Below are positions 710 to 62,655 of a stretch of 64,000 nt of DNA, in pieces. The stretch's first letter is position 1, and every line of letters begins with the position of its first letter. The position numbers and the translations under genes were made by a program. Source of the DNA: Parcubacteria group bacterium (lineage in GTDB: Bacteria > Patescibacteriota > Minisyncoccia > SW-4-49-11); contig CALRBF010000001.1 in the NCBI GenBank assembly GCA_943354045.1, forward strand, positions 259,860-323,859, written 5' to 3'. The notes beneath the pieces are model-generated. The model was not told where the DNA came from. It searched no databases and saw only the letters and a program-made list of their open reading frames with translations.

Positions 710-1276
710 ATGCTTTCTATTTCAGATATTAAAAAAGGTAAAATTATTGTGGTTGATGAAACCCCTTATTTAATTTTATTTAGCCAATTAGCGAAAAAAG
801 GACGGGCGGGTTCAGTTCTTACCGTCAAAATGCGTAATCTATTAACCCAGAATACCCAAGAGCGTAATTTTAAACAATCAGATATGTTTGCTGAGGCCGA
901 TATTGCAGAATCCTATGCTGAATATTTGTATAATGATTCTGAGGGATATCATTTTATGGATGAAAGAAGTTTTGAGCAATATGCTTTTGATACTGAGACT
1001 TTAGGTGAGAATACTATTGGATATTTACAAGAAGGCGCTAAGGTAAAAATTATAACCTTCAATGGATCTCCCATTACTATTAATCTCCCTCCAAAAGTTG
1101 TGCTCGAAGTAATCGAGGCTGTGCCTGCAATTAAAGGAAATACCGTAGATGCTGCAGTAAAAGTAGTAAAATTAGAAACAGGATTAGAGGTAAAGGTTCC
1201 TATGTTTATCAATCAAGGAGATAAAATTCGTATTAATACCGAGACTGGAATTTACGAAGAAAAGGTTACTAATTAA
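710..1276 (+). CDS. efp: Elongation factor P
   Basis: EF-P-like sequence 'GRAGSVLTVKMRNLLT'; internal Met gives the typical 189 aa; the ORF-track start 656 adds 18 aa that are probably not translated. Confidence 0.85.
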   Translation: MLSISDIKKGKIIVVDETPYLILFSQLAKKGRAGSVLTVKMRNLLTQNTQERNFKQSDMFAEADIAESYAEYLYNDSEGYHFMDERSFEQYAFDTETLGENTIGYLQEGAKVKIITFNGSPITINLPPKVVLEVIEAVPAIKGNTVDAAVKVVKLETGLEVKVPMFINQGDKIRINTETGIYEEKVTN

Positions 1277-3849
1277 CCCCAATAGTCTTTGATAGTTACT
1301 CCAACTTTAATTGGAATACTAGCTTTATATACTGATTCCATAATATTTACTATTTTCTTTTGATATAAGTCCACCTCATCCTGTTCCACCTCGAATACTA
1401 ATTCATCATGAACTTGTAATATCATATGAATATCTTGCTTTTCTCTAAGATATTCATCAATTTGAATCATAGCTAACTTTATAATATCGGCTTGCAGTCC
1501 CTGAATTGGCATATTAACTGCAATTCGCTCGAGCAAAGCTTGATTGCGAGGATTTCTAATATCTATATTGGATAAATCCCGAATTCTTCCATATTCGGTT
1601 TGAGCATATCCATGTTGGCGTGCAAATTGCTTCAAGGATTCCATATATTCATGGAGTTCCGGATAAGCTTCTCGATACCGAGCCAAGAATTCCTGTGCCT
1701 CGGTGCGACTAATTTTGAGATTGCGAGCAAGGCTTACTGCTCCCATTCCATATAAAATTCCAAAATTAATAGTCTTGGCAAAAGTACGCATTTCTTTGGT
1801 AATGTCTTCCGAGTTTACTCCATATACTCGCTGAGCTGTGGCTGTATGAAAATCTTGTCCCTGACTAAAAATCTCTAGCATTGCTTTGTCCTGAGCAAGA
1901 TGAGCGGCTAGTCTTAATTCTATTTGAGAATAATCACAGGCAAGTAATGTCCAGTTTTTAGGAGCCACAAAACATTGTTTAATTTGGCGACCAAGTTCAC
2001 TACGAGCAGGGATATTCTGAAGATTAGGATCTACCGAGGATAATCTACCAGTAGCTGCAATATTTTGCTGATAACTAGTATGTATACGGCCTTTTTTATC
2101 CATCATCAGAGGTAGACTATCAATATAGGTAGACTTAAGTTTAGCAACTTCCCGATATTGCAAAATTAAATCGACAATTTCAAATTCTGCTCGCATTGAC
2201 TCGAGAGCATCAGCTGAGGTAGAAATTTGTCCACTTCCAGTTTTCTTTACCCCTTTTGGAGATAAGGCTAATTTGGTGAATAATATTTGAGATAATTGTT
2301 TGGGAGAATTAAGATTGAATTCCTCTCCAGCTATACTATAAATTTTTTGAGTCAAATCTTTGATTTTATTCTCCACAAAATCTTTAGTTGATTGAAGTTT
2401 ATCAATATCAAATAATACTCCAATGGCTTCCATACGAGCAAGCACCGGTAATAATGGTCTCTCAATAGTATTATATACCTCCTCAATATGCTGAGGTTTC
2501 ATCTTCTCAAGAATAATAGTATATAGGCTATGCAAGCTCAGTTCTGGATGAGATTCATTATAATCAACCCCATACGCTGAGGCCACTGCTGCCAGAGATA
2601 ATTGCCTCTCTCCAGGATTGATAAGATATGCCATCAAAACAATATCCTGCAGATTAGCCTTGAGTTCAAAAGGATATAAACCCCGTATTATAGGCTTTAT
2701 ATCGGCGCAAATAAGAATTTGATTGGTTGCAAGCAAATCTCTGAGTTCTTTTTCATTGAGTTTAGCTCGCCGTCCCCTAGCGTCTATTGCCGCATAATAC
2801 TCCCCTGATTGATATATGGCTAATGGACCAGAGACCAATGTATCAAGAGACTGATACTGCGTTTTGATATGCTCTTCTGCCTGTGCTGATTTATCTTCTT
2901 GGCTCCAAAAACTTGCCTGAGCTTTATTTGGTTTTTCTTTTTCTAATATAATATTCAAATCCTTTACTAAGGAGAAAAATTCAAAATGTTTGAATGTTTC
3001 TTTTGCCTTCTCTACCGGAAATTGATATTCTAAAGTCTCATTTACAATATCTCCAATGGGAGCATCGAGGATAATTGTCGCAAGCTCACGACTAAAAAAA
3101 GCTTGTTCTTTATTATTCTTGAGATTCTCAAAGATAGATTTAGTCAAAGCCTCTCTATCCTCTTTGGCAATATCTTCAAACTTAGTATATTTATCTACAA
3201 ATTTATAAACATTCTCTATAGTCTCAAATCGCTTTAGTAGATTCACTGCTCGCAAATCTCCAATCCCTGGTACTCCCGGAATATTATCCGAAGGATCCCC
3301 CTTTAGCCCTTTAAAATCTCTCACTTGATCGGGCCTAATCTGATATTTTGCAATCACCGCTTCAGTATCAAAAATTACCGTGTCATTAATACTTTTCCTG
3401 AGGGTATAAACCGAAATACCCGGCTTTACTAATTGCATAGTATCCATATCCCCCGTCACAATTACCAATTCATTCTTACTTTTATTGGTTTGCTCGGCAA
3501 TAGTTCCAATAATATCATCAGCCTCATATCCAGCGAGCTCCAAAACAGGGATATCGAGGCCTCGCACTAATTCTTGCACCAAAGGAATTTGGTCATACAA
3601 ATCCTGATCTGCCGCCACTCGATTGGCCTTATAATCATCAAATTGCTCATGCCGAAAAGTCCCTCCATCCACATCAAAAGCTGCTAAAACAATATCCGGT
3701 TTTATATCCTTGATAACTTTTAATAATAATTTGGCATATCCATATACCGCATTCACCATCACTCCCTCCGCTGTCGTAAAAGGAGGCAAAGCATGATAAG
3801 CTCGATGAATTACCGCATTACTATCTAGAATTACAATTTTTTTCTTCAT
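1273..3849 (-). CDS. polA: DNA polymerase I
   Basis: 858 aa; N-terminal 5'-3' exonuclease region; pol motifs 'DYSQIELR', 'HDELVFE', 'RTFAKTINFGILYG'. Confidence 0.92.
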   Translation of the reverse strand: MKKKIVILDSNAVIHRAYHALPPFTTAEGVMVNAVYGYAKLLLKVIKDIKPDIVLAAFDVDGGTFRHEQFDDYKANRVAADQDLYDQIPLVQELVRGLDIPVLELAGYEADDIIGTIAEQTNKSKNELVIVTGDMDTMQLVKPGISVYTLRKSINDTVIFDTEAVIAKYQIRPDQVRDFKGLKGDPSDNIPGVPGIGDLRAVNLLKRFETIENVYKFVDKYTKFEDIAKEDREALTKSIFENLKNNKEQAFFSRELATIILDAPIGDIVNETLEYQFPVEKAKETFKHFEFFSLVKDLNIILEKEKPNKAQASFWSQEDKSAQAEEHIKTQYQSLDTLVSGPLAIYQSGEYYAAIDARGRRAKLNEKELRDLLATNQILICADIKPIIRGLYPFELKANLQDIVLMAYLINPGERQLSLAAVASAYGVDYNESHPELSLHSLYTIILEKMKPQHIEEVYNTIERPLLPVLARMEAIGVLFDIDKLQSTKDFVENKIKDLTQKIYSIAGEEFNLNSPKQLSQILFTKLALSPKGVKKTGSGQISTSADALESMRAEFEIVDLILQYREVAKLKSTYIDSLPLMMDKKGRIHTSYQQNIAATGRLSSVDPNLQNIPARSELGRQIKQCFVAPKNWTLLACDYSQIELRLAAHLAQDKAMLEIFSQGQDFHTATAQRVYGVNSEDITKEMRTFAKTINFGILYGMGAVSLARNLKISRTEAQEFLARYREAYPELHEYMESLKQFARQHGYAQTEYGRIRDLSNIDIRNPRNQALLERIAVNMPIQGLQADIIKLAMIQIDEYLREKQDIHMILQVHDELVFEVEQDEVDLYQKKIVNIMESVYKASIPIKVGVTIKDYWG

Positions 3850-3862
3850 ATATTGTTATTAT

Positions 3863-3930
3863 ATCATATTTTGGGGAAAACAGGGACAGTTTTATTGTCC
3901 TCCTTTGCGCCTGCCTGCGGTAGGCAGGTT
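3863..3930. repeat. Palindromic repeat unit (module m1), 5' flank of the RhuM cassette
   Basis: 'atcatattttggggaaaacagggacagttttattgtcctcctttgcgcctgcctgcggtaggcagg'; near-identical to 5203-5273. Confidence 0.7.
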
Positions 3931-4179
3931 TGCACTATAAGTAATATTTACATACCCCCAGGCCATAGTAGGCCTACAGAAGAAATTTATACGGTTAGTG
4001 AGCTTAGACAAATATTGAAATCACCCCATGAAACCATAAAGCAATTTGATGGGAATAATAGCTTCATTATAGACCTCAGGGAAAAACACTACCCCCCACA
4101 GAACATTCCCCCGACTCTGCAGCGATGCAGAGTCTTTCTTTACTCAAAAATACTCTCAAAAATTTAATTTTATATACAC

Positions 4180-5175
4180 TTACTTTTTCTGAAGTTTACT
4201 TTCTAGTTGATTTATAGTATCCAGATAAGATTGTTCTACTGGGCTTAGAGTTTTTTGCTGATATTTTTTATATTCATCTTGAGCTTTTTGCATTGCTTCT
4301 TTACTACTAATTTTACCTGCATTTCGTAAGACTTCTTCCCCTGTAGCCAACAAAATACTATCTAAATGGTCTGCCCAATCTTGCATCTTCATTGGGACTT
4401 GTCTTTCTGCTTGTCTTTCAGCAAAGTCTAGATATCCTGAGACTATTTGACCCAATGCTCTTAATTCTTTTTCATCTAGATAATTTTTAGCTATTGAGAT
4501 ATCTTGTAATTGCGGGGTATTCCCAGTAAAGGTAGTGAGTCCCATAAATTCTTTTTCCGCATCAGCTCGATTATAAATCACTTCAGCTGCAGTTTGTTTA
4601 TGTACTGCATAATGTATTTTGTTCTGGACTTTTTTGAAAAATTCAATTGAAGTTTTATTATTAGCATCATAATCTATACTTGTTGCATAGATATCTAATA
4701 TCTGTCTATAAAAAACTTTCTCACTAGCTCGAATATTTCGTATACGGGTTAGCAATTCTTTCCAATAATTACCTCCGCCTAGATTTTTGAGCCTCTCATC
4801 ATCCATCGTGAAGCCTTTGAGTATATATTCTTTTAACCTTTGAGTTGCCCAAATTCTAAATTGAGTGGCTATTTTGCTATTAACTCTATAACCTACAGCG
4901 ATAATCATATCTAGATTATAATATGCAATTTCACGATTAACCTCTCTAGTACCTTCTTTTTGAACTATCCGGAAATTCCGGACAGTTGATATCTCGGCTA
5001 ATTCCTGAGTTTTATAGATATTTTGTATATGTTCACTAATAGTTCTGACATCAACTTCAAAAAGTTCTGCCATTAATTTTTGAGATAACCAAATCGTCTC
5101 ATCCTCTATAAAAACATTCAACTTTACCGCTCCATTGGAATCTGTATACAATATAAAGTTGTTTTGCTCAGTCAT
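4180..5175 (-). CDS. RhuM-family (virulence-associated, Fic/DOC-neighbourhood type) protein
   Basis: 331 aa; N-terminal block 'TIWLSQKLMAELFEVDVRTISEHIQNIY...IAVGYRVNSKIATQFRIWATQ' is typical of PF13310-like RhuM proteins; flanked by direct repeat copies. Confidence 0.6.
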   Translation of the reverse strand: MTEQNNFILYTDSNGAVKLNVFIEDETIWLSQKLMAELFEVDVRTISEHIQNIYKTQELAEISTVRNFRIVQKEGTREVNREIAYYNLDMIIAVGYRVNSKIATQFRIWATQRLKEYILKGFTMDDERLKNLGGGNYWKELLTRIRNIRASEKVFYRQILDIYATSIDYDANNKTSIEFFKKVQNKIHYAVHKQTAAEVIYNRADAEKEFMGLTTFTGNTPQLQDISIAKNYLDEKELRALGQIVSGYLDFAERQAERQVPMKMQDWADHLDSILLATGEEVLRNAGKISSKEAMQKAQDEYKKYQQKTLSPVEQSYLDTINQLESKLQKK

Positions 5176-5202
5176 GTTTTTGATTATTATATATTTTTAT
5201 TA

Positions 5203-5320
5203 TAGCATATTTTGGGTAAAAATATGGACAGTTTTATTGTCCTCCTTTACCTGCCTACCGCAGGTAGGCAGGGAGGAGCTTTAAGTCCCTCTTATACTTT
5301 TTTAGGAGAGGGAAAAGAAA
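5203..5320. repeat. Mosaic palindromic repeat (m1 + m2 modules), 3' flank of the RhuM cassette
   Basis: 'agcatattttgggtaaaaatatggacagttttattgtcctcctttacctgcctaccgcaggtaggcagggaggagctttaagtccctc...ttaggagaggg'. Confidence 0.7.
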
Positions 5321-5345
5321 AGCCCGATCTATGCCGGGCTTTGAG
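5311..5345 (-). terminator. Terminator for lipoprotein ORF 5371..5778
   Basis: Hairpin 'agcccg atctatg ccgggct' with a T-run on the minus strand. Confidence 0.45.
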
Positions 5346-5370
5346 GTCGTGTTGACTACTGCTTAGGTAC

Positions 5371-5778
5371 TTAAAGTAAAAGGACAGTAGCACGCCCATT
5401 TTCTATTATATGAGGAATTGCCACAAATCCTGGCACTACAACATTTTGTGGCAAAACACTCTTATTATTAAGACGATTATCCACTTGACCAGCGGGTAAT
5501 CTTGCCCTCACCCAACAAGACCTCCTAACTCTTGGGGATGATTGACATAAATATGAGAGCCTTTCTATGGGAACATTTCTAAACTCAAATGTCAAGAGTT
5601 TACTTGATGACACAACATCCCTAGACATTAGTGTAGCTGTGAATCTATCGGTTGGAAATATTTTAGGAGGATTACTTACTCCAGAACATCCAGAGACTCC
5701 TAGAAGGAGAATAAGCCCAAGAATGGAAGGTAGACGAAATCGGAATCTAGACATGGAAAGAACTCCAGTGATGGTCAA
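5371..5778 (-). CDS. Hypothetical lipoprotein
   Basis: Signal peptide plus lipobox 'LLLGVSGCSG'; bracketed by repeat copies; the real start is probably the internal Met. Confidence 0.4.
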   Translation of the reverse strand: MTITGVLSMSRFRFRLPSILGLILLLGVSGCSGVSNPPKIFPTDRFTATLMSRDVVSSSKLLTFEFRNVPIERLSYLCQSSPRVRRSCWVRARLPAGQVDNRLNNKSVLPQNVVVPGFVAIPHIIENGRATVLLL

Positions 5779-5825
5779 TAACCTTATATCATATTTTAGA
5801 ATTTTTGTCTATATTTTAGATTTCT

Positions 5826-5965
5826 GACGACTGAAAAGTCGCCCCTACGAGAGGAAATGTCGGCGAGGTCGCTGACTCTACGAAAAATGGAGGGATAAAC
5901 CCCCTCCCAAACTAAAATATGGGAGGGACTTAAAGCCTCCGCTACGAAAACTCCACACCACCCTT
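5826..5965. repeat. Mosaic palindromic repeat (m3 hairpin 'cgactgaaaagtcgcccctacga' + m5 'ggagggataaaccccctcc...gggagggacttaaagcctcc')
   Basis: Homologous to 50155-50225 and other copies. Confidence 0.7.
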
Positions 5966-5981
5966 ACCGATACTCCCATGC

Positions 5982-6010
5982 TTGAAAATAAGCTGGTTTT
6001 ATGGTATAAT
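5982..6010 (+). promoter_or_regulatory. Sigma70-type promoter of yebC-ruvC
   Basis: TTGAAA (5982-5987), 17-nt spacer, extended -10 'tggTATAAT' (6005-6010), 28 nt upstream of the yebC ATG. Confidence 0.6.
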
Positions 6011-6038
6011 TGTAATCAATAAGATAATAATATTCAAT

Positions 6039-6572
6039 ATGGCTGGGCATAATAAATTCTCCAAAATCAAGCATAAAAAAGCTGCTACAGATAAGTTGAA
6101 GGCTCAGAATTTTTCTAAGGTGGTCAAGATGATTCAAATTGCGGCAAGGAAAGGTTCTATTGATCCTGCTATGAATCCTGAGTTGAGATTAGCTTTAGAA
6201 AAAGCTAAAGAAGTCAATATGCCTAAAGATAATATTAATCGTATTTTGGAAAAAGCCTCTAATACCAGTGGGCAGGTGATTATGTATGAGGGTTTTGGGC
6301 CTGAGGGGGTTGGTTTGCTCATCAAGACATATACCGATAATGGTAATCGTACGGTGGCTGATTTAAGGCATCTATTATCTAAAAATGGAGGTAGTCTAGG
6401 GGCTAGTGGATCAGTGATTTGGATGTTTGAGGAAATTATCAGAGAGCAAGAATATAAAGTCAATATACCTACTGAAATTACTGAAGAGGCCCAAGAAAAA
6501 TTAGACAATCTCATTGAAATCCTAGAAGAATTAGATGATGTGGAAGAGATTTGGACTACTGCCTCCATTTAG
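6039..6572 (+). CDS. yebC: YebC/PmpR-family transcriptional regulator
   Basis: 'MAGHNKFSKIKHKKAATDKLKAQNFSK...' is typical of YebC; the conserved yebC-ruvC linkage is present. Confidence 0.85.
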   Translation: MAGHNKFSKIKHKKAATDKLKAQNFSKVVKMIQIAARKGSIDPAMNPELRLALEKAKEVNMPKDNINRILEKASNTSGQVIMYEGFGPEGVGLLIKTYTDNGNRTVADLRHLLSKNGGSLGASGSVIWMFEEIIREQEYKVNIPTEITEEAQEKLDNLIEILEELDDVEEIWTTASI

Positions 6573-7082: not shown

Positions 7083-8672
7083 TTATCGAGATAAATTAGA
7101 TAATATCGTATTAGATAACCTACTGGGCCAATATGTGACTCTTCTTATAGTGCATGAGGGACAAACCCCACCAACCCATGGTCCAATATCCAATCTATCA
7201 TATGGTGCTAATGTTAGTACAGAGGCTGTAACTATAGACTGCCCACCACCAGAAACGGTTACATCATTATCATTATAAGCTGACGCTATTTTTATAAGCT
7301 GATTATTTGTCAAACTAGGTGACGGTACCTGTACTGCATCACGAGTTGATCCATCACGTGCCATTAAAGAGTAATTATTAGTAGAAGTTTTTCTAGGTCT
7401 AAGAGATCCCGCGGCTGTACTAATTGTTAAATACTGTTGATCAATACCAAGTGTCGCATAAGCCTCTGTGTATAATGATCCAGGTCCCCGGGTATAAAAT
7501 GTATTAAAAGTATCCCCCGTAATATTGGCATTATCTACTGGACGTGTATTAGCGGCTCCTATGGTAATAATCAGAGAAGTAGCAGAGCTTCCAGCCTCAA
7601 CTTGTGCCCCCCAAATTGTTATATCCCAATCTGCTGTACCCCCATTAATAATATCAGCAAAATTTTTATACAGTGAACTATCTGTTTTATTAACTGTTCT
7701 CGTAATACGAACCCACTGCCCTACAATTAAAGAACTATAATAGTTCAGCCCACCCTCATCTCCAATATCTGTATTATAAACACCATTATTACTTGGGATA
7801 GCATTTAGTTTTGCATAGAAACTCACAGTATAGCTAATTCCTGTAGGTGATGTTGTTAAATTAGGAAAACTAATTCTCGTATATCCATAAGTTGGTCCCG
7901 TATTAATGAATCTCACAGCTGTATTACTCCCATCTGGAGCTAATAATCCTGTTTGGACACTAAGACCAGCTCCAACACTTTGTGCCCAAGAGCTTACATT
8001 ATATGCTGAGTGAAGCACATTATTGGTTCTCGCCTCCTCCACCAACAGCCCCAGCGATTCGCCTGTTATTGGGTTGTGGTCGAATCTTGGCTCATTGGCT
8101 GCCGCTGTCTTAAGTAGTCCATCACTCCCCACATAAGTTGCTCTATTCGGGGTTGGGTTAGTCTCTCCCCTACTAAAGCTTATAGGGATACTTCCTGTAG
8201 AATTAAATAACATTTTATCTCTGGCAAAGTTTATATCTAAATTGGGATTCCCTGCTATATTTGCTGCTGTATTACCCGCACTATCATATCCTGCACTTAC
8301 TCCATTTGCTGTCTTGGTTACCGTATATTGTCCATTGGCATCTGGAGGTACTGGTATTGATGCTATATAGATAGGACTTAATGAGCTACTTAAATTTATT
8401 CCATTACTACATGTTACGCTACATAATCCTATACTTGCTCCTACGGGTATATTTTGTAAACCTACGGGATAACTTCCTCCATTATCTATGATGAATTGTT
8501 GCACTGCTTTTGCTATACTATTTATATCTGCTCTTCGCTGCGCTGTTCTTGCTGCTTCTATTTGTTTATTGGGGTTTATTGCCACCAATACTATAGCCGC
8601 CAATATTCCTATTGCTGCTATTACTAATAATATCTCAAGTAGGGTGAAACCTTTTTGTTTTTCTCTTTTCAT
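7083..8672 (-). CDS. Type IV pilin-like protein with a large C-terminal domain
   Basis: Prepilin N-terminus 'KGFTLLEILLVIAAIGILAAIVLVAI' (class III leader and N-methylation site) followed by about 490 aa that is S/T/N/G-rich. Confidence 0.7.
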   Translation of the reverse strand: MKREKQKGFTLLEILLVIAAIGILAAIVLVAINPNKQIEAARTAQRRADINSIAKAVQQFIIDNGGSYPVGLQNIPVGASIGLCSVTCSNGINLSSSLSPIYIASIPVPPDANGQYTVTKTANGVSAGYDSAGNTAANIAGNPNLDINFARDKMLFNSTGSIPISFSRGETNPTPNRATYVGSDGLLKTAAANEPRFDHNPITGESLGLLVEEARTNNVLHSAYNVSSWAQSVGAGLSVQTGLLAPDGSNTAVRFINTGPTYGYTRISFPNLTTSPTGISYTVSFYAKLNAIPSNNGVYNTDIGDEGGLNYYSSLIVGQWVRITRTVNKTDSSLYKNFADIINGGTADWDITIWGAQVEAGSSATSLIITIGAANTRPVDNANITGDTFNTFYTRGPGSLYTEAYATLGIDQQYLTISTAAGSLRPRKTSTNNYSLMARDGSTRDAVQVPSPSLTNNQLIKIASAYNDNDVTVSGGGQSIVTASVLTLAPYDRLDIGPWVGGVCPSCTIRRVTYWPSRLSNTILSNLSR

Positions 8673-54190: not shown

Positions 54191-54320
54191 TGTGGACCTG
54201 ACTGGGATACAAACCAGACTGGTAGTCTTGGGAAACCCACGGTTTCCCAACCTTCCTAGACAGGAAACTCCCGTTTCCCGACCCCTTCCCAACTGGCTCG
54301 ATCATTTGTTTAGTTAATAC
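54191..54320 (-). mobile_element. Miniature insert 3' of tRNA-Ala: partial tRNA 3'-end duplicate (18-nt exact direct repeat) plus a conserved two-hairpin GC-rich module
   Basis: 'tgtggacctgactgggat' at 54191-54208 and 54321-54338; module 'ggaaacccacggtttccc...ggaaactcccgtttcccgaccccttcccaactggctcgatc' shared with 57187-57300. Confidence 0.5.
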
Positions 54321-57104: not shown

Positions 57105-57137
57105 AATTTTGTTTTGAATAATTGAGGGGGGGGGTAT

Positions 57138-57324
57138 TCGATTTCTGGTTTTTTACTCGTTTACGGGGGTGTCTCCGATTGGGATCTCAGTCGCTATAGC
57201 TCCTTGGAAACCCACGGTTTCCAACACTCGGAGTAAACTCCTCGCTGCCTTCCTTCACGGGGAACTCCCGTTCCCCGACCCCTTCCCAGTTCGATCCTTT
57301 AATTATTTACTTTTAATTAATATT
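57138..57324 (-). mobile_element. Miniature insert 3' of tRNA-Arg: 49-nt exact direct repeat of the tRNA 3' end plus trailer, enclosing the conserved two-hairpin GC-rich module
   Basis: 'tcgatttctggttttttactcgtttacgggggtgtctccgattgggatc' at 57138-57186 and 57325-57373; module 'ttggaaacccacggtttccaac...ggggaactcccgttccccgaccccttcccagttcgatcc'. Confidence 0.55.
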
Positions 57325-57356
57325 TCGATTTCTGGTTTTTTACTCGTTTACGGGGG

Positions 57357-57430
57357 TGTCTCCGATTGGGATCGAACCAATAACCTACAGCTTAGAAGGC
57401 TGTTGCTCTATCCAATTGAGCTACAGAGAC
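57357..57430 (-). tRNA. tRNA-Arg (anticodon TCT)
   Basis: Reverse complement 'gtctctgtagctcaattggatagagcaacagc cttctaa gctgt aggttattggttcgatcccaatcggagaca'. Confidence 0.85.
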
Positions 57431-60295: not shown

Positions 60296-60324
60296 ACCAT
60301 ACCACATTTTTCTAATTTTGTCAA
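60296..60324 (-). promoter_or_regulatory. Strong sigma70-type promoter of small acidic gene 1
   Basis: Minus strand TTGACA (60324-60319), 17 nt, tgg-TATGGT (60301-60296); homologous to 62304-62332. Confidence 0.55.
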
Positions 60325-60371
60325 TATGTTTTGTGTTTTTGCTATAATGCTTATCTCTATTTTATAAACAT

Positions 60372-60515
60372 AATAGCTTATTTACTTATTTTTATATAAT
60401 TTTATATTTTACTATTATGTTATGTTTTATTATTATACATTTTAAATTTCGTAGTGCTTTAAGTCCCTCCTAAATAAATATAGGAGGGGGCGACCTTTCA
60501 GTCGCCCGAAACCTA
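60372..60515. repeat. AT-rich about 70-nt block duplicated at 62381-62450, plus a GC-rich repeat (m2 + m3)
   Basis: 'aatagcttatttacttatttttatataattttatatttt...' matches 62381+; 'gctttaagtccctcctaaataaatataggagggggcgacctttcagtcgccc'. Confidence 0.65.
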
Positions 60516-60597
60516 ACCCCAAAACTTGACAAAAAAACACTACTATTATAAAATATATTTACATTTGGCGTTAGCCACGTCCCTCGTTTACGAGGGC

Positions 60598-60996
60598 TCA
60601 TTGATAAAGATTTATAAATCCTTCTTTTACTTTAGCAAAATCTATTTCATTCAAAGACCCCATTTTGTTATGCCGTCTCCTATAATCAATTGTTCTGACC
60701 TGCTGTAAACAAGCTGTTATTCTCTTACCTTGATATTCATAGGCCACATACCAAGTACCTGTTTTATTTTTGGTAGTTGTAGGAATAACCAAATATGTCC
60801 ATTTACTTAATCTTTTTAATATAATAACTGGTCTAGAAAACTTATCTCCCTTACCGCTGACTTCTGTTCCAATATTCTCTCCTAATTGACACCACCAAAT
60901 ATCTCGTTCTTTGACAAATGGAGCTTTGTGATTACTTTTATCTAACTTAGATTTTAATACTAACCATTCCTTAAATCTTTTGATAAATTTTTGCAT
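60598..60996 (-). CDS. MazF/PemK-family endoribonuclease toxin-like protein; no antitoxin ORF evident
   Basis: 'ERDIWWCQLGENIGTEVSGKGDKFSRPVIILKR...YLVIPTTTK' matches the MazF/PemK core; surrounded by repeats. Confidence 0.55.
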   Translation of the reverse strand: MQKFIKRFKEWLVLKSKLDKSNHKAPFVKERDIWWCQLGENIGTEVSGKGDKFSRPVIILKRLSKWTYLVIPTTTKNKTGTWYVAYEYQGKRITACLQQVRTIDYRRRHNKMGSLNEIDFAKVKEGFINLYQ

Positions 60997-61054
60997 ATAG
61001 TATTGATATAATTTGTATAGATTATATCTTAACTAAAGCTATGTGTATAGGAGG

Positions 61055-61440
61055 AGGACGGGGTGGAATGTTCTGTATTCGTAGGGCTTTAAGTCCCTCC
61101 TATATTTATTTAGGAGGGGGCGACCTCTCAATCGCCCGTGGTATTATTGTCTCCCTTTTGGGGTAGTTTATTATTGTCCTCCTTTGGAGGAGGTGGATAG
61201 TTATTAAAGTTGTATTCTAGTTTTTGAATAAAATTTAGTAATATACTTTATCCACCCTCCCCCTACGGGTACTCCCTCCAAAGGGAGACAAAAATACAGT
61301 CCACACCCGTCACTTCGTGACACCCTCGCCAGCGAGGCCTGCCTGCGGTAGGCAGGGACAGTTTTTGTCCTCCCTTGGGGGACATTAAAACCCTCCACCC
61401 CGTCAGGCAAGCCTGCCACCCCCTCCCAAACTCTATGCTA
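61055..61440. repeat. Largest composite of mosaic palindromic repeat modules (m2, m3, variable-loop 'ggtggata...tatccacc' hairpin, m4, inverted m1, 'ccaccccgtcagg')
   Basis: Modules seen directly and shared with 46520-46745, 52320-52600 and 62455-62650. Confidence 0.75.
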
Positions 61441-61470
61441 TAATATGGATATATATACTAAATATTTTCT

Positions 61471-62070
61471 ATGCCCAAGCTCAAATCATCAACCTATACT
61501 TTCTCCCCCCTACAGGAGGGGACTTTGCCTTTTGATGCCAATAGCAAGCGCAATGTAACAGATCAATTAGCTTGGGCTAAAAGAGAGGATATTCTAGAGA
61601 CTATTAACCCACATAAAATCCCTATATCGCTCTTACTCGTGAATATTGACCGGGATAATAATATTGGTAATATAATCAGATCAGCTAATACTTTCGGGGT
61701 GCAGGAGGTGCTAATTTATGGCAGGAAAAAATTTGACCGTAGAACTAGTGTTGGAGCTGAATTTTTTATGCAATTTTGGCATATTCGCTTTGTTGAGGAG
61801 TTAGAGACTCTACAACAAGAATTTGATATTATACTCGGATTAGAACAAACCTCTGATTCAGTAGAATTACATAGCTATCAATGGCCTCAAAATGCTAAAA
61901 TACTAATTGCTATTGGGCATGAGGGTACTGGGCTTCCCCAAGAAATACTGGATATTTGTGATACTACCCTTGAGATTGAGCAATACGGCACCACCAGATC
62001 CCTGAATGTATCAGTTGCTACAGGGATTGTACTATATGATTATCGGGTGAAAAGAGAGTTAGTAAAGTAA
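61471..62070 (+). CDS. TrmH/SpoU-family RNA 2'-O-methyltransferase
   Basis: SPOUT motifs 'LLLVNIDRDNNIGNIIRSANTFG', 'IAIGHEGTGL', 'LNVSVATGIVLY'. Confidence 0.75.
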   Translation: MPKLKSSTYTFSPLQEGTLPFDANSKRNVTDQLAWAKREDILETINPHKIPISLLLVNIDRDNNIGNIIRSANTFGVQEVLIYGRKKFDRRTSVGAEFFMQFWHIRFVEELETLQQEFDIILGLEQTSDSVELHSYQWPQNAKILIAIGHEGTGLPQEILDICDTTLEIEQYGTTRSLNVSVATGIVLYDYRVKRELVK

Positions 62071-62100
62071 AAAGCCCACCGTCCGAAGACGGGGGCTGGG
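62069..62100 (-). terminator. Terminator of small acidic gene 2
   Basis: Minus strand 'cccagcccccgtcttcggacggtgggc' followed by T5. Confidence 0.55.
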
Positions 62101-62131
62101 AGTGGCTGAGAATCCACTCAAGATGAAGACG

Positions 62132-62281
62132 TTAGCTCTCCTGAGTGGGTTCAACCTCATGGGCTTCGGGGTCTACAAAGAACCCTTTAGCAGCTTCATT
62201 AGCCACTGGCCTGAAGAGATTCTCCAGAACCTCAAAGCCAAGCTGCACCAGCTGCTGGTCGGTGGTGGGGGTGGAGGACAT
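62132..62281 (-). CDS. Small acidic protein (paralogue family member 2), 49 aa from an internal Met; GC-rich
   Basis: 'MSSTPTTDQQLVQLGFEVLENLFRPVANEAAKGFFVDPEAHEVEPTQES'. The segment is open in three frames, so coding status is uncertain; the ORF-track N-terminal extension is AT-rich promoter sequence. Confidence 0.35.
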   Translation of the reverse strand: MSSTPTTDQQLVQLGFEVLENLFRPVANEAAKGFFVDPEAHEVEPTQES

Positions 62282-62303
62282 GTCAGACCTGAAAGACAAG
62301 CTA

Positions 62304-62332
62304 TATATACCACATTTCCTTAATTTTATCAA
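62304..62332 (-). promoter_or_regulatory. Strong sigma70-type promoter of small acidic gene 2
   Basis: Minus strand TTGATA (62332-62327), 17 nt, tgg-TATATA (62309-62304). Confidence 0.55.
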
Positions 62333-62454
62333 TACATCTTGTGATTTAATCATAATATCCACCCTTACTTTATCAATTTAATAGCTTATTTACTTGTTTT
62401 TATATAATATTATATTTTGATATTACTTTATGTTTCATCCTGAATAATTTTGAC

Positions 62455-62655
62455 TTTCGTATGGCTTTTGTCCTAAAATTCCCCTCTTGAGGGGTGTCAT
62501 ATTTACCTGACGGGGTGGAAAAGAAAATATTCATAAATAATACAGAAACACTCCACCCCGTCTTCCTGCTATGTAAACATGGCAGGAATCCACCCCTCAA
62601 CGAGGGGAATTTAACTCAATCCACCTGCTATCGATAAAAAGGGAGGACAAAATAA
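62455..62655. repeat. MITE-like nested palindromic element with about 30-nt imperfect terminal inverted repeats
   Basis: Left end 'ttttgtcctaaaattcccctcttgaggggtg'; right end is the reverse complement 'cacccctcaacgaggggaattt...gggaggacaaaataa'; inner inverted repeat 'tgacggggtgga...tccaccccgtc'. Confidence 0.6.

Follow-up and report, generated by a model that had tools for sequence, protein, structure and literature searches.

Between polA and yebC in a 64,000-nt stretch of DNA from a Parcubacteria group bacterium (GenBank assembly GCA_943354045.1, contig CALRBF010000001.1, positions 259,860 to 323,859 of the forward strand; hereafter the window, to which coordinates refer unless another locus is named), a gene of the RhuM family lies between two copies of a structured direct repeat. 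Do these repeats delimit a mobile cassette, or do they stand beside rhuM for another reason? A preliminary description of the sequence had taken the first view, both for rhuM and for a neighbouring lipoprotein open reading frame (ORF). Our results show that the interval is a hotspot of variable gene content and that rhuM is cargo recently exchanged with a sister lineage. The repeats, for their part, are probably paralogous terminator-promoter "insulator" modules and not recombination sites.

Structure of the repeats upstream of polA and rhuM

The features on which the argument turns are the following.

1273 to 3849, minus strand: polA (DNA polymerase I, 858 aa), ORF with its ATG at 3847-3849 and the Pfam domains 5_3_exonuc_N, 5_3_exonuc and DNA_pol_A
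3848 to 3930 (feature span), minus strand: repeat copy A, with hairpin hp1 (3910-3928), AAAGGAGG, hairpin hp2 (GGACAATAAAACTGTCC, 3884-3900), a T-run and a promoter
3858 to 3866, minus strand: extended -10 box TGATATAAT, 8 nt 5′ of the polA ATG, read from the sequence
4180 to 5175, minus strand: rhuM (331 aa, Virulence_RhuM; PF13310, E 2.4e-112; PADLOC PDC-S05)
5176 to 5312, minus strand: repeat copy B and its extension, with box TGCTATAAT (5199-5207), a T-run, hp2 (5226-5242) and hp1 (5250-5272)
5278 to 5312, minus strand: the sub-a module of the copy B extension, CCCTCTCC..GAGGGACTTAAAGC

Copies A (3848-3928) and B (5189-5272) are 84.5% identical over 84 columns by BLAST (E 2e-18) and 86% identical over 83 nt by local alignment. 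A 23-nt core, GGACAGTTTTATTGTCCTCCTTT, shows no differences between them and occurs twice in the 64 kb, where shuffled sequences lead one to expect none. The region is 100% identical in two independent assemblies of the same genome (L003 and L004). The two copies announced by the preliminary description as near-identical repeats of about 65 nt are thus genuine, with 84-86% identity over about 83 nt. Since the minus strand carries both polA and rhuM, the position given for the repeats had been inverted: far from starting after the polA and RhuM stops, both copies abut start codons. The supposed third copy after the lipoprotein ORF dissolves into a 14-nt match, TTATATCATATTTT at 5784-5797, which is the reverse complement of the extended -10 motif; a distinct module of this repeat family, inverted, lies close by at 5902-5936.

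Read on the minus strand, both copies have the same order: hp1 (CCTGCCT..AGGCAGG), AAAGGAGG, hp2 (GGACAATAAAACTGTCC), a T-run and the extended -10 CCCAAAATATGnTATAAT. Each folds as two or three separate hairpins, and the stem-loops are stable (fold z-scores of -2.9 for copy A and -6.0 for the copy B region); hp2 with its T-run is terminator-like by scoring. Rfam searches of the whole window at gathering thresholds, and of 3800-6100 by E-value, returned tRNAs and noise only, ruling out a known RNA family as the identity of the repeat.

Upstream of polA, the promoter part of the module is conserved. We compared it among relatives, here and below loci traced from PolA homologues with 96-77% identity to the window (numbered L; all metagenome contigs); searching metagenome contigs with PolA itself yielded a single useful locus, L007. 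In 12 of 12 genomes the polA ATG is preceded by TGnTATAAT at exactly 8 nt, without a Shine-Dalgarno sequence, and the sequence farther upstream is wholly different. A TGnTATAAT 6-9 nt before a start codon that lacks a Shine-Dalgarno sequence has the layout of a sigma-70 extended -10 promoter giving a leaderless mRNA and, because the box stands only 8 nt before the ATG, the polA mRNA is predicted to be leaderless, a property that would be conserved in the lineage. The rhuM ATG has its extended -10 box (TGnTATAAT) 23 nt upstream, in copy B. The motif is found 7 times in the window, against 1.07 expected. Consensus matches thus suggest that the module acts as a promoter and a terminator.

The repeats belong to a dispersed mosaic family

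Modules of this repeat family are present in at least 10 of the 28 intergenic gaps of the window, in both orientations and in varying combinations. Sub-a (GAGGGACTTAAAGC) has 8 matches in the window against 0.46 expected, hp1 occurs at 4 sites (3910, 35994, 46604 and 61338), AAAGGAGGACAAT at 6, and other recurring modules include GGCGACCTTTCAGTCGCC. The neighbours of these modules include the genes for ribosomal proteins S9 and S15, BipA, an SLT-domain protein and a MazF-like toxin. Because they are found beside ribosomal and other housekeeping genes, the mosaic elements are not tied to cargo genes and, because copies A and B belong to a genome-wide intergenic family, they are not dedicated cassette sites. 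Family modules are also present in other Paceibacteria metagenome-assembled genomes (MAGs; L001 and L002). Furthermore, the 23-nt core has two matches in the genome collection, both in other Paceibacteria MAGs, single-copy in each, inside a hairpin cluster and not adjoining rhuM. A 20-nt module searched in viral contigs had no matches.

Comparison of module copies revealed loops that are exactly reverse-complemented, with stems and flanks unchanged (60465-60488 versus 61095-61118). The loop of hp1, indeed, reads ACCGC in one copy and GCGGT in another (window 3910-3928 versus L021 5907-5925). This looks like in-place flipping of the hairpin, and it points to a role at the level of structure or of DNA, against a sequence-specific RNA.

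By analogy, the family would be of a kind with REP/BIME, BOX or Correia elements. In enterobacteria and pseudomonads, REP/BIME elements are imperfect palindromes, short and GC-rich, strictly extragenic and multi-copy, built of few module types in mosaics; they often lie between co-directional or convergent genes, as possible terminators, mRNA stabilisers or rearrangement substrates. The window family resembles them in its short GC-rich imperfect palindromes, extragenic location, copy number and mosaic modules laid both ways round, and differs in its unrelated sequence, in its reduced host of the candidate phyla radiation (CPR) and in the fusion of the element to the promoter of the downstream gene. 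Correia elements (CREE, Neisseria) and BOX elements (Streptococcus pneumoniae) are likewise dispersed, modular, intergenic stem-loop repeats that can supply promoters or terminators. Unlike these, the window family has a variable module order, no sequence similarity to them and neither terminal inverted repeats nor a target-site duplication (TA for Correia) that we could see. Nor does it look like a miniature inverted-repeat transposable element, since module content and length vary and the alignments contain no constant termini or target-site duplication. We found no description in the literature of REP/BIME-like mosaic repeats or leaderless promoters in CPR or Paceibacteria; the locus documents such a family there, together with predicted leaderless promoters.

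Two other regions of the window carry these elements. A MazF/PemK-like toxin gene (60598-60996) stands amid several of them (60299-62470), between two copies of a 162-nt repeat that are 75% identical (60299-60460 and 62307-62468). At 1-560 the GC content is 0.46-0.51, against about 0.35 elsewhere, with overlapping ORFs on both strands and a mosaic module at 7-33.

rhuM was exchanged recently between lineages

The RhuM-family assignment of the preliminary description was confirmed by a full-length match to PF13310 (E 2e-112; 374.7 bits for a cut-off of 33.7). The protein also matches PADLOC PDC-S05 over residues 3-330 (E 1.3e-157) and stands alone, as PDC-S05 does, making rhuM a candidate single-gene anti-phage system of this type. 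Another PDC-S05 gene with a RhuM domain is reported to have lowered the plating efficiency of T7 and T5 about 1000-fold in E. coli (preprint 10.1101/2024.09.26.614923). RhuM has been proposed as a toxin domain in restriction-modification (R-M) and defence neighbourhoods (Anantharaman et al. 2013, PMC3710099); unlike the contexts described there, the window RhuM is neither fused to Fic/DOC nor placed in an R-M operon. RhuM had no match among solved structures, and searches of NCBIfam and PHROGs with the four proteins tested gave nothing informative.

Synonymous divergence (dS) separates rhuM sharply from its surroundings. Between the window and L021, dS is 0.066 for rhuM, versus 1.47 for polA, 1.6 for ruvC and 1.8 for efp; between the window and L015 it is 0.045 for rhuM, 0.30 for polA and 0.19 for efp. 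The value for rhuM is about 20-fold below those of the flanking genes, and the gene is present or absent among near-identical backbones. Low dS in rhuM beside high dS in its neighbours indicates recent horizontal exchange with a sister lineage, and together with the patchy distribution it upholds the earlier view of RhuM as mobile cargo. In other words, a candidate defence gene has swept across backbones diverged to synonymous saturation, landing always at one spot beside polA.

The block of high identity spans 4107-5366, with 92-94% nucleotide identity (polA: 75.6%). One end is the hairpin 3′ of rhuM and the other the stop codon of the lipoprotein gene, with copy B inside; in L024 the block stops within hp2, at 5229. 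With these limits, the exchanged block does not coincide with the boundaries of repeats A and B. The hairpin 3′ of rhuM and another one within the block are the following.

4113 to 4134, no strand assigned: hairpin between the convergent rhuM and ORF112 remnant (described below), terminator-like on the plus strand, at the polA-proximal end of the block
5319 to 5342, minus strand: intrinsic-terminator-like hairpin and T-run 3′ of the lipoprotein gene, inside the block (which ends at 5366)

Relatives of RhuM in viral contigs reach at most 66% identity, and no phage vector for the window rhuM was found among them. In L023 (5971-6867) ATA stands in place of the rhuM start codon, and the gene call, of 288 aa, begins at an internal start; rhuM may be decaying there.

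The yebC-polA interval is a hotspot of variable content

Among relatives with PolA 79-96% identical to that of the window, the interval has at least eight distinct architectures. Its content is as follows, in the direction from yebC to polA, with PolA identity in brackets.

L007, L017 and L019 (92%, 93% and 87%): geneX (123-136 aa, no Pfam match)
L009 (96%): geneX and an rve-type insertion sequence (IS) transposase
L013 and L014 (95%): geneX, a lipoprotein homologue and about 700 bp of decayed sequence
L011 (95%): two small membrane-protein units in tandem
L016 (94%): three small ORFs, unrelated
L015 (96%): rhuM, an intact small membrane-protein gene (ORF112) and geneX
L021 and L023 (79%): lipoprotein gene, rhuM and a small gene
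L024 to L026 (79%): rhuM and an ORF112-like region, without the lipoprotein gene
L062 (79%; 24 contigs agree): empty, a 193-bp mosaic spacer only

With an empty site and an IS insertion among these architectures, the earlier proposal of an insertion hotspot is borne out. The proposal that the repeats delimit its cassettes is not supported: geneX, the IS and the small membrane-protein genes are not bracketed by the repeat, the modules form a dispersed family found beside housekeeping genes, and the exchanged block ends elsewhere. The unit duplicated in tandem in L011 (4997-5870) combines a 3′ hairpin with a gene for a small hydrophobic protein and its promoter; the 3′ hairpin module of this unit also follows rhuM in L023.

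Hotspots of defence genes between conserved core genes are known, for instance among the variable islands of E. coli or Pseudomonas. The locus resembles them in its fixed site (yebC/ruvC on one side, polA on the other), in the differing cargo of near-identical backbones and in the nature of that cargo, which includes a candidate defence gene and an IS. Unlike those islands, it holds very small cargo (0.2-2.2 kb, 0-2 genes) and no mobile-element machinery, in an uncultivated episymbiont lineage. It is thus an ordinary but well-resolved variable or defence hotspot with REP/BIME-like repeats in a CPR genome, and it shows cleanly and on a small scale the gene flux of CPR/Paceibacteria, whose genomes have few recognisable mobile elements. 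It does not overturn current understanding, and offers a useful annotation and a lead for population genetics, not a new mechanism.

Module duplication around rhuM and the empty site

Every rhuM-positive genome with both flanks readable has a module duplication around the gene: 83 nt at 86% identity in the window, 53 nt at 92% in L023 and about 30 nt in L021 and L024. L015 stands outside this comparison, its contig beginning inside rhuM, which leaves the rhuM-upstream side unreadable. To this extent the repeats do bracket rhuM, as the preliminary description had it, but they are not cassette-specific delimiters.

The empty site shows where rhuM sits. The 82-nt stretches upstream of polA in L062 and upstream of rhuM in L024 share 90% identity, and the match continues to the last base in front of the start codon. 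The place of rhuM is therefore immediately behind the module that belongs to polA, and polA has a second, shorter copy of it.

Next to copy A lies what remains of another gene.

3931 to 4086, plus strand: 5′-truncated remnant of a small membrane-protein gene (ORF112 of L015), without its N-terminal part and promoter

By tblastn the remnant is 68% identical to the C-terminal 69 aa of L015 ORF112. The plus-strand ORF at 3853-4167, considered as a real gene or as a helix-turn-helix protein or excisionase, was rejected since it is the 3′ remnant of this small membrane-protein gene. In L015, which has no copy A, the order is rhuM, intact ORF112, geneX and polA. By comparison, copy A of the window stands where L015 has the 5′ part of ORF112 and the conserved neighbour geneX, about 885 bp. 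Homology between the two loci stops at a GCAGG microhomology within hp1 of copy A and picks up again at the polA promoter.

How did the direct repeats come to flank rhuM?

We consider it probable that copies A and B are paralogous insulator modules. The GC-rich stem-loops of each module are drawn from the genome-wide mosaic intergenic family, the T-run would stop read-through from the upstream gene, and the extended -10 would start transcription, of a leaderless polA mRNA from copy A and of a rhuM mRNA with a short leader from copy B. By recent horizontal exchange among related Paceibacteria, the block with rhuM reached the lineage, and it sits immediately behind the module that in empty-site genomes is polA's own; since polA carries a second module copy, direct repeats of 30-83 nt flank rhuM. 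The duplication around rhuM would then be a consequence of block insertion or rearrangement, and not the footprint of a dedicated recombinase. Plausible routes are recombination, whether by short homology, homology-assisted or illegitimate, and the doubling of a small-gene unit as in L011. Once in place, copies A and B could also recombine homologously and delete rhuM.

Several observations weigh against this reading. Copies A and B have diverged at about 14% of positions, far more than the 2-6% by which rhuM differs between genomes, and copy A is nearest to the polA-upstream copy of L023 (94% over 51 nt). The idea that copy A is a fresh copy of B is weakened by both facts, and copy A may predate the local rearrangement or have been imported. 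The promoter and terminator roles are themselves read from consensus matches, and a flanking duplication with a single-copy empty site also fits site-specific integration. Finally, repeat regions of metagenome contigs are prone to assembly error, yet the independent assemblies of the window genome agree.

The alternative that survives best sees in the direct repeats the by-products of a tandem duplication, its unit being a gene for a small secreted or membrane protein with its promoter, a mosaic spacer and an outward promoter; copies A and B would be old paralogous spacers with no causal link to the movement of rhuM. L011 provides a precedent, a tandem small-membrane-gene unit with the same promoter and 3′ hairpin and no rhuM, and in L024 the 3′ hairpin region of rhuM occurs a second time, near yebC. 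The 14% divergence of A and B implies an old duplication, and small-gene promoters are homologous across the locus (the lipoprotein promoter is 91% identical over 44 nt to the L021 small-gene promoter adjoining polA). We nevertheless hold this account to be unlikely, as it leaves unexplained both the match of the L024 rhuM-upstream region to the empty-site polA-upstream region, up to the base before the ATG, and the absence of geneX and of the 5′ part of ORF112 exactly at copy A.

Less likely still is the view that the repeat is an att-like site and rhuM a small integrative cassette, with copies B and A as attL and attR and a recombinase acting in trans. Direct repeats do flank rhuM wherever both flanks can be read (window, L021, L023 and L024), the empty L062 is single-copy, and rhuM occupies the same locus in two lineages yet has clearly been exchanged horizontally. 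Across the genomes, however, one finds neither an identical short core at constant junctions nor a cognate integrase. The length and ends of the repeat vary by genome (30, 53 or 83 nt), and the promoter consensus is the one core that stays invariant in it. The exchanged block extends past copy B yet ends 180 nt before reaching copy A, L015 has rhuM but no copy A beside polA, and the modules are common beside housekeeping genes. Furthermore, no recombinase domain was detected in the genes within about 6 kb in the window genome and 10 relatives, the sole rve gene being the IS in the L009 interval. A known arrangement of comparable form is the integron, in which single adaptive or defence genes are likewise separated by structured imperfect-palindrome repeats at one chromosomal locus. 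Unlike integrons, this locus has no adjacent IntI, attI or Pc, and its repeats lie 5′ of ORFs with promoters of their own. Whereas attC sites lie 3′ of promoterless ORFs and form a single bulged hairpin (R''-L''/L'-R'), copies A and B stand 5′ of ATGs with TGnTATAAT, fold as two or three separate hairpins and have kin beside housekeeping genes.

A related and equally speculative idea, on which we would place little weight, does without an integrase. The polA-upstream module would be a preferred landing pad, where incoming DNA with a similar module integrates by short-homology recombination in naturally competent, pilus-rich CPR cells, duplicating the module; the dispersed elements would then be pads genome-wide. 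If this were true, module duplication would automatically give a promoter both to the cargo, here a single-gene defence system, and to polA.

That the repeat is a shared cis-regulatory RNA leader (attenuator or riboswitch) co-regulating polA and rhuM is largely refuted and has very little chance of being right: the stable stem-loops of both copies and the terminator-like hp2 would suit it, but the conserved box, 8 nt before the polA ATG, comes after the stem-loops, which would leave the hairpins out of the polA transcript, most relatives are without stem-loops upstream of polA, Rfam gave no match and the hairpin loops are flipped between copies.

The lipoprotein gene and other neighbours

The remainder of the interval, up to yebC, holds these features.

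5371 to 5754, minus strand: lipoprotein gene, probable ATG at 5752-5754, with a signal peptide and the lipobox LLLGVSGC; no Pfam match
5783 to 5816, minus strand: lipoprotein promoter (TAGACA, 17 nt, TGATATAAG), taken in the preliminary description for a third repeat copy
5826 to 5950, plus strand: mosaic stem-loop elements, modules d and f with sub-a (5902-5936), in opposite orientation
6039 to 6572, plus strand: yebC (177 aa), with a promoter-like site at 5982-6010

The lipobox and homologues at the same locus in L013 and L014 (40% identity), L021 and L023 support the lipoprotein ORF. An antisense ORF of 86 aa (5567-5827), called by one pipeline in L003, was dropped since the lipoprotein ORF has homologues. 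Between the window (5371-5754) and L021 (5380-5805), promoter, 5′ untranslated region and signal peptide are about 81% conserved, and the mature domain is not alignable at the DNA level. This suggests rapid diversification of a surface protein, whose gene is a genuine resident of the locus and evolves fast.

The lipoprotein gene is no cassette set between copies of the A/B direct repeat. It is bracketed by a 35-nt inverted repeat of sub-a (5278-5312 and 5902-5936). In L011 the homologous promoter and mosaic segment (5807-5946) is inverted relative to polA, and such arrangements suggest inversions between inverted modules.

Variable content extends beyond this interval, with a second spot between ruvC and the G6PD gene and a third downstream of efp. 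The second lies about 1 kb from the first hotspot and holds in the window a 529-aa pilin-like gene with an N_methyl motif (7083-8672), which is missing in L009, L011, L013, L016 and L017 and different in L019 and L020. In the tRNA-rich region at 54-60 kb, we observed a perfect 50-nt direct repeat (57137-57186 and 57324-57373) and a 65-nt repeat with 77% identity (54251-54315 and 57248-57312). Finally, ruvC is on the plus strand, as is yebC, and the YebC of 177 aa is a partial match to the model of the second and third domains, a short form that is kept in all relatives.

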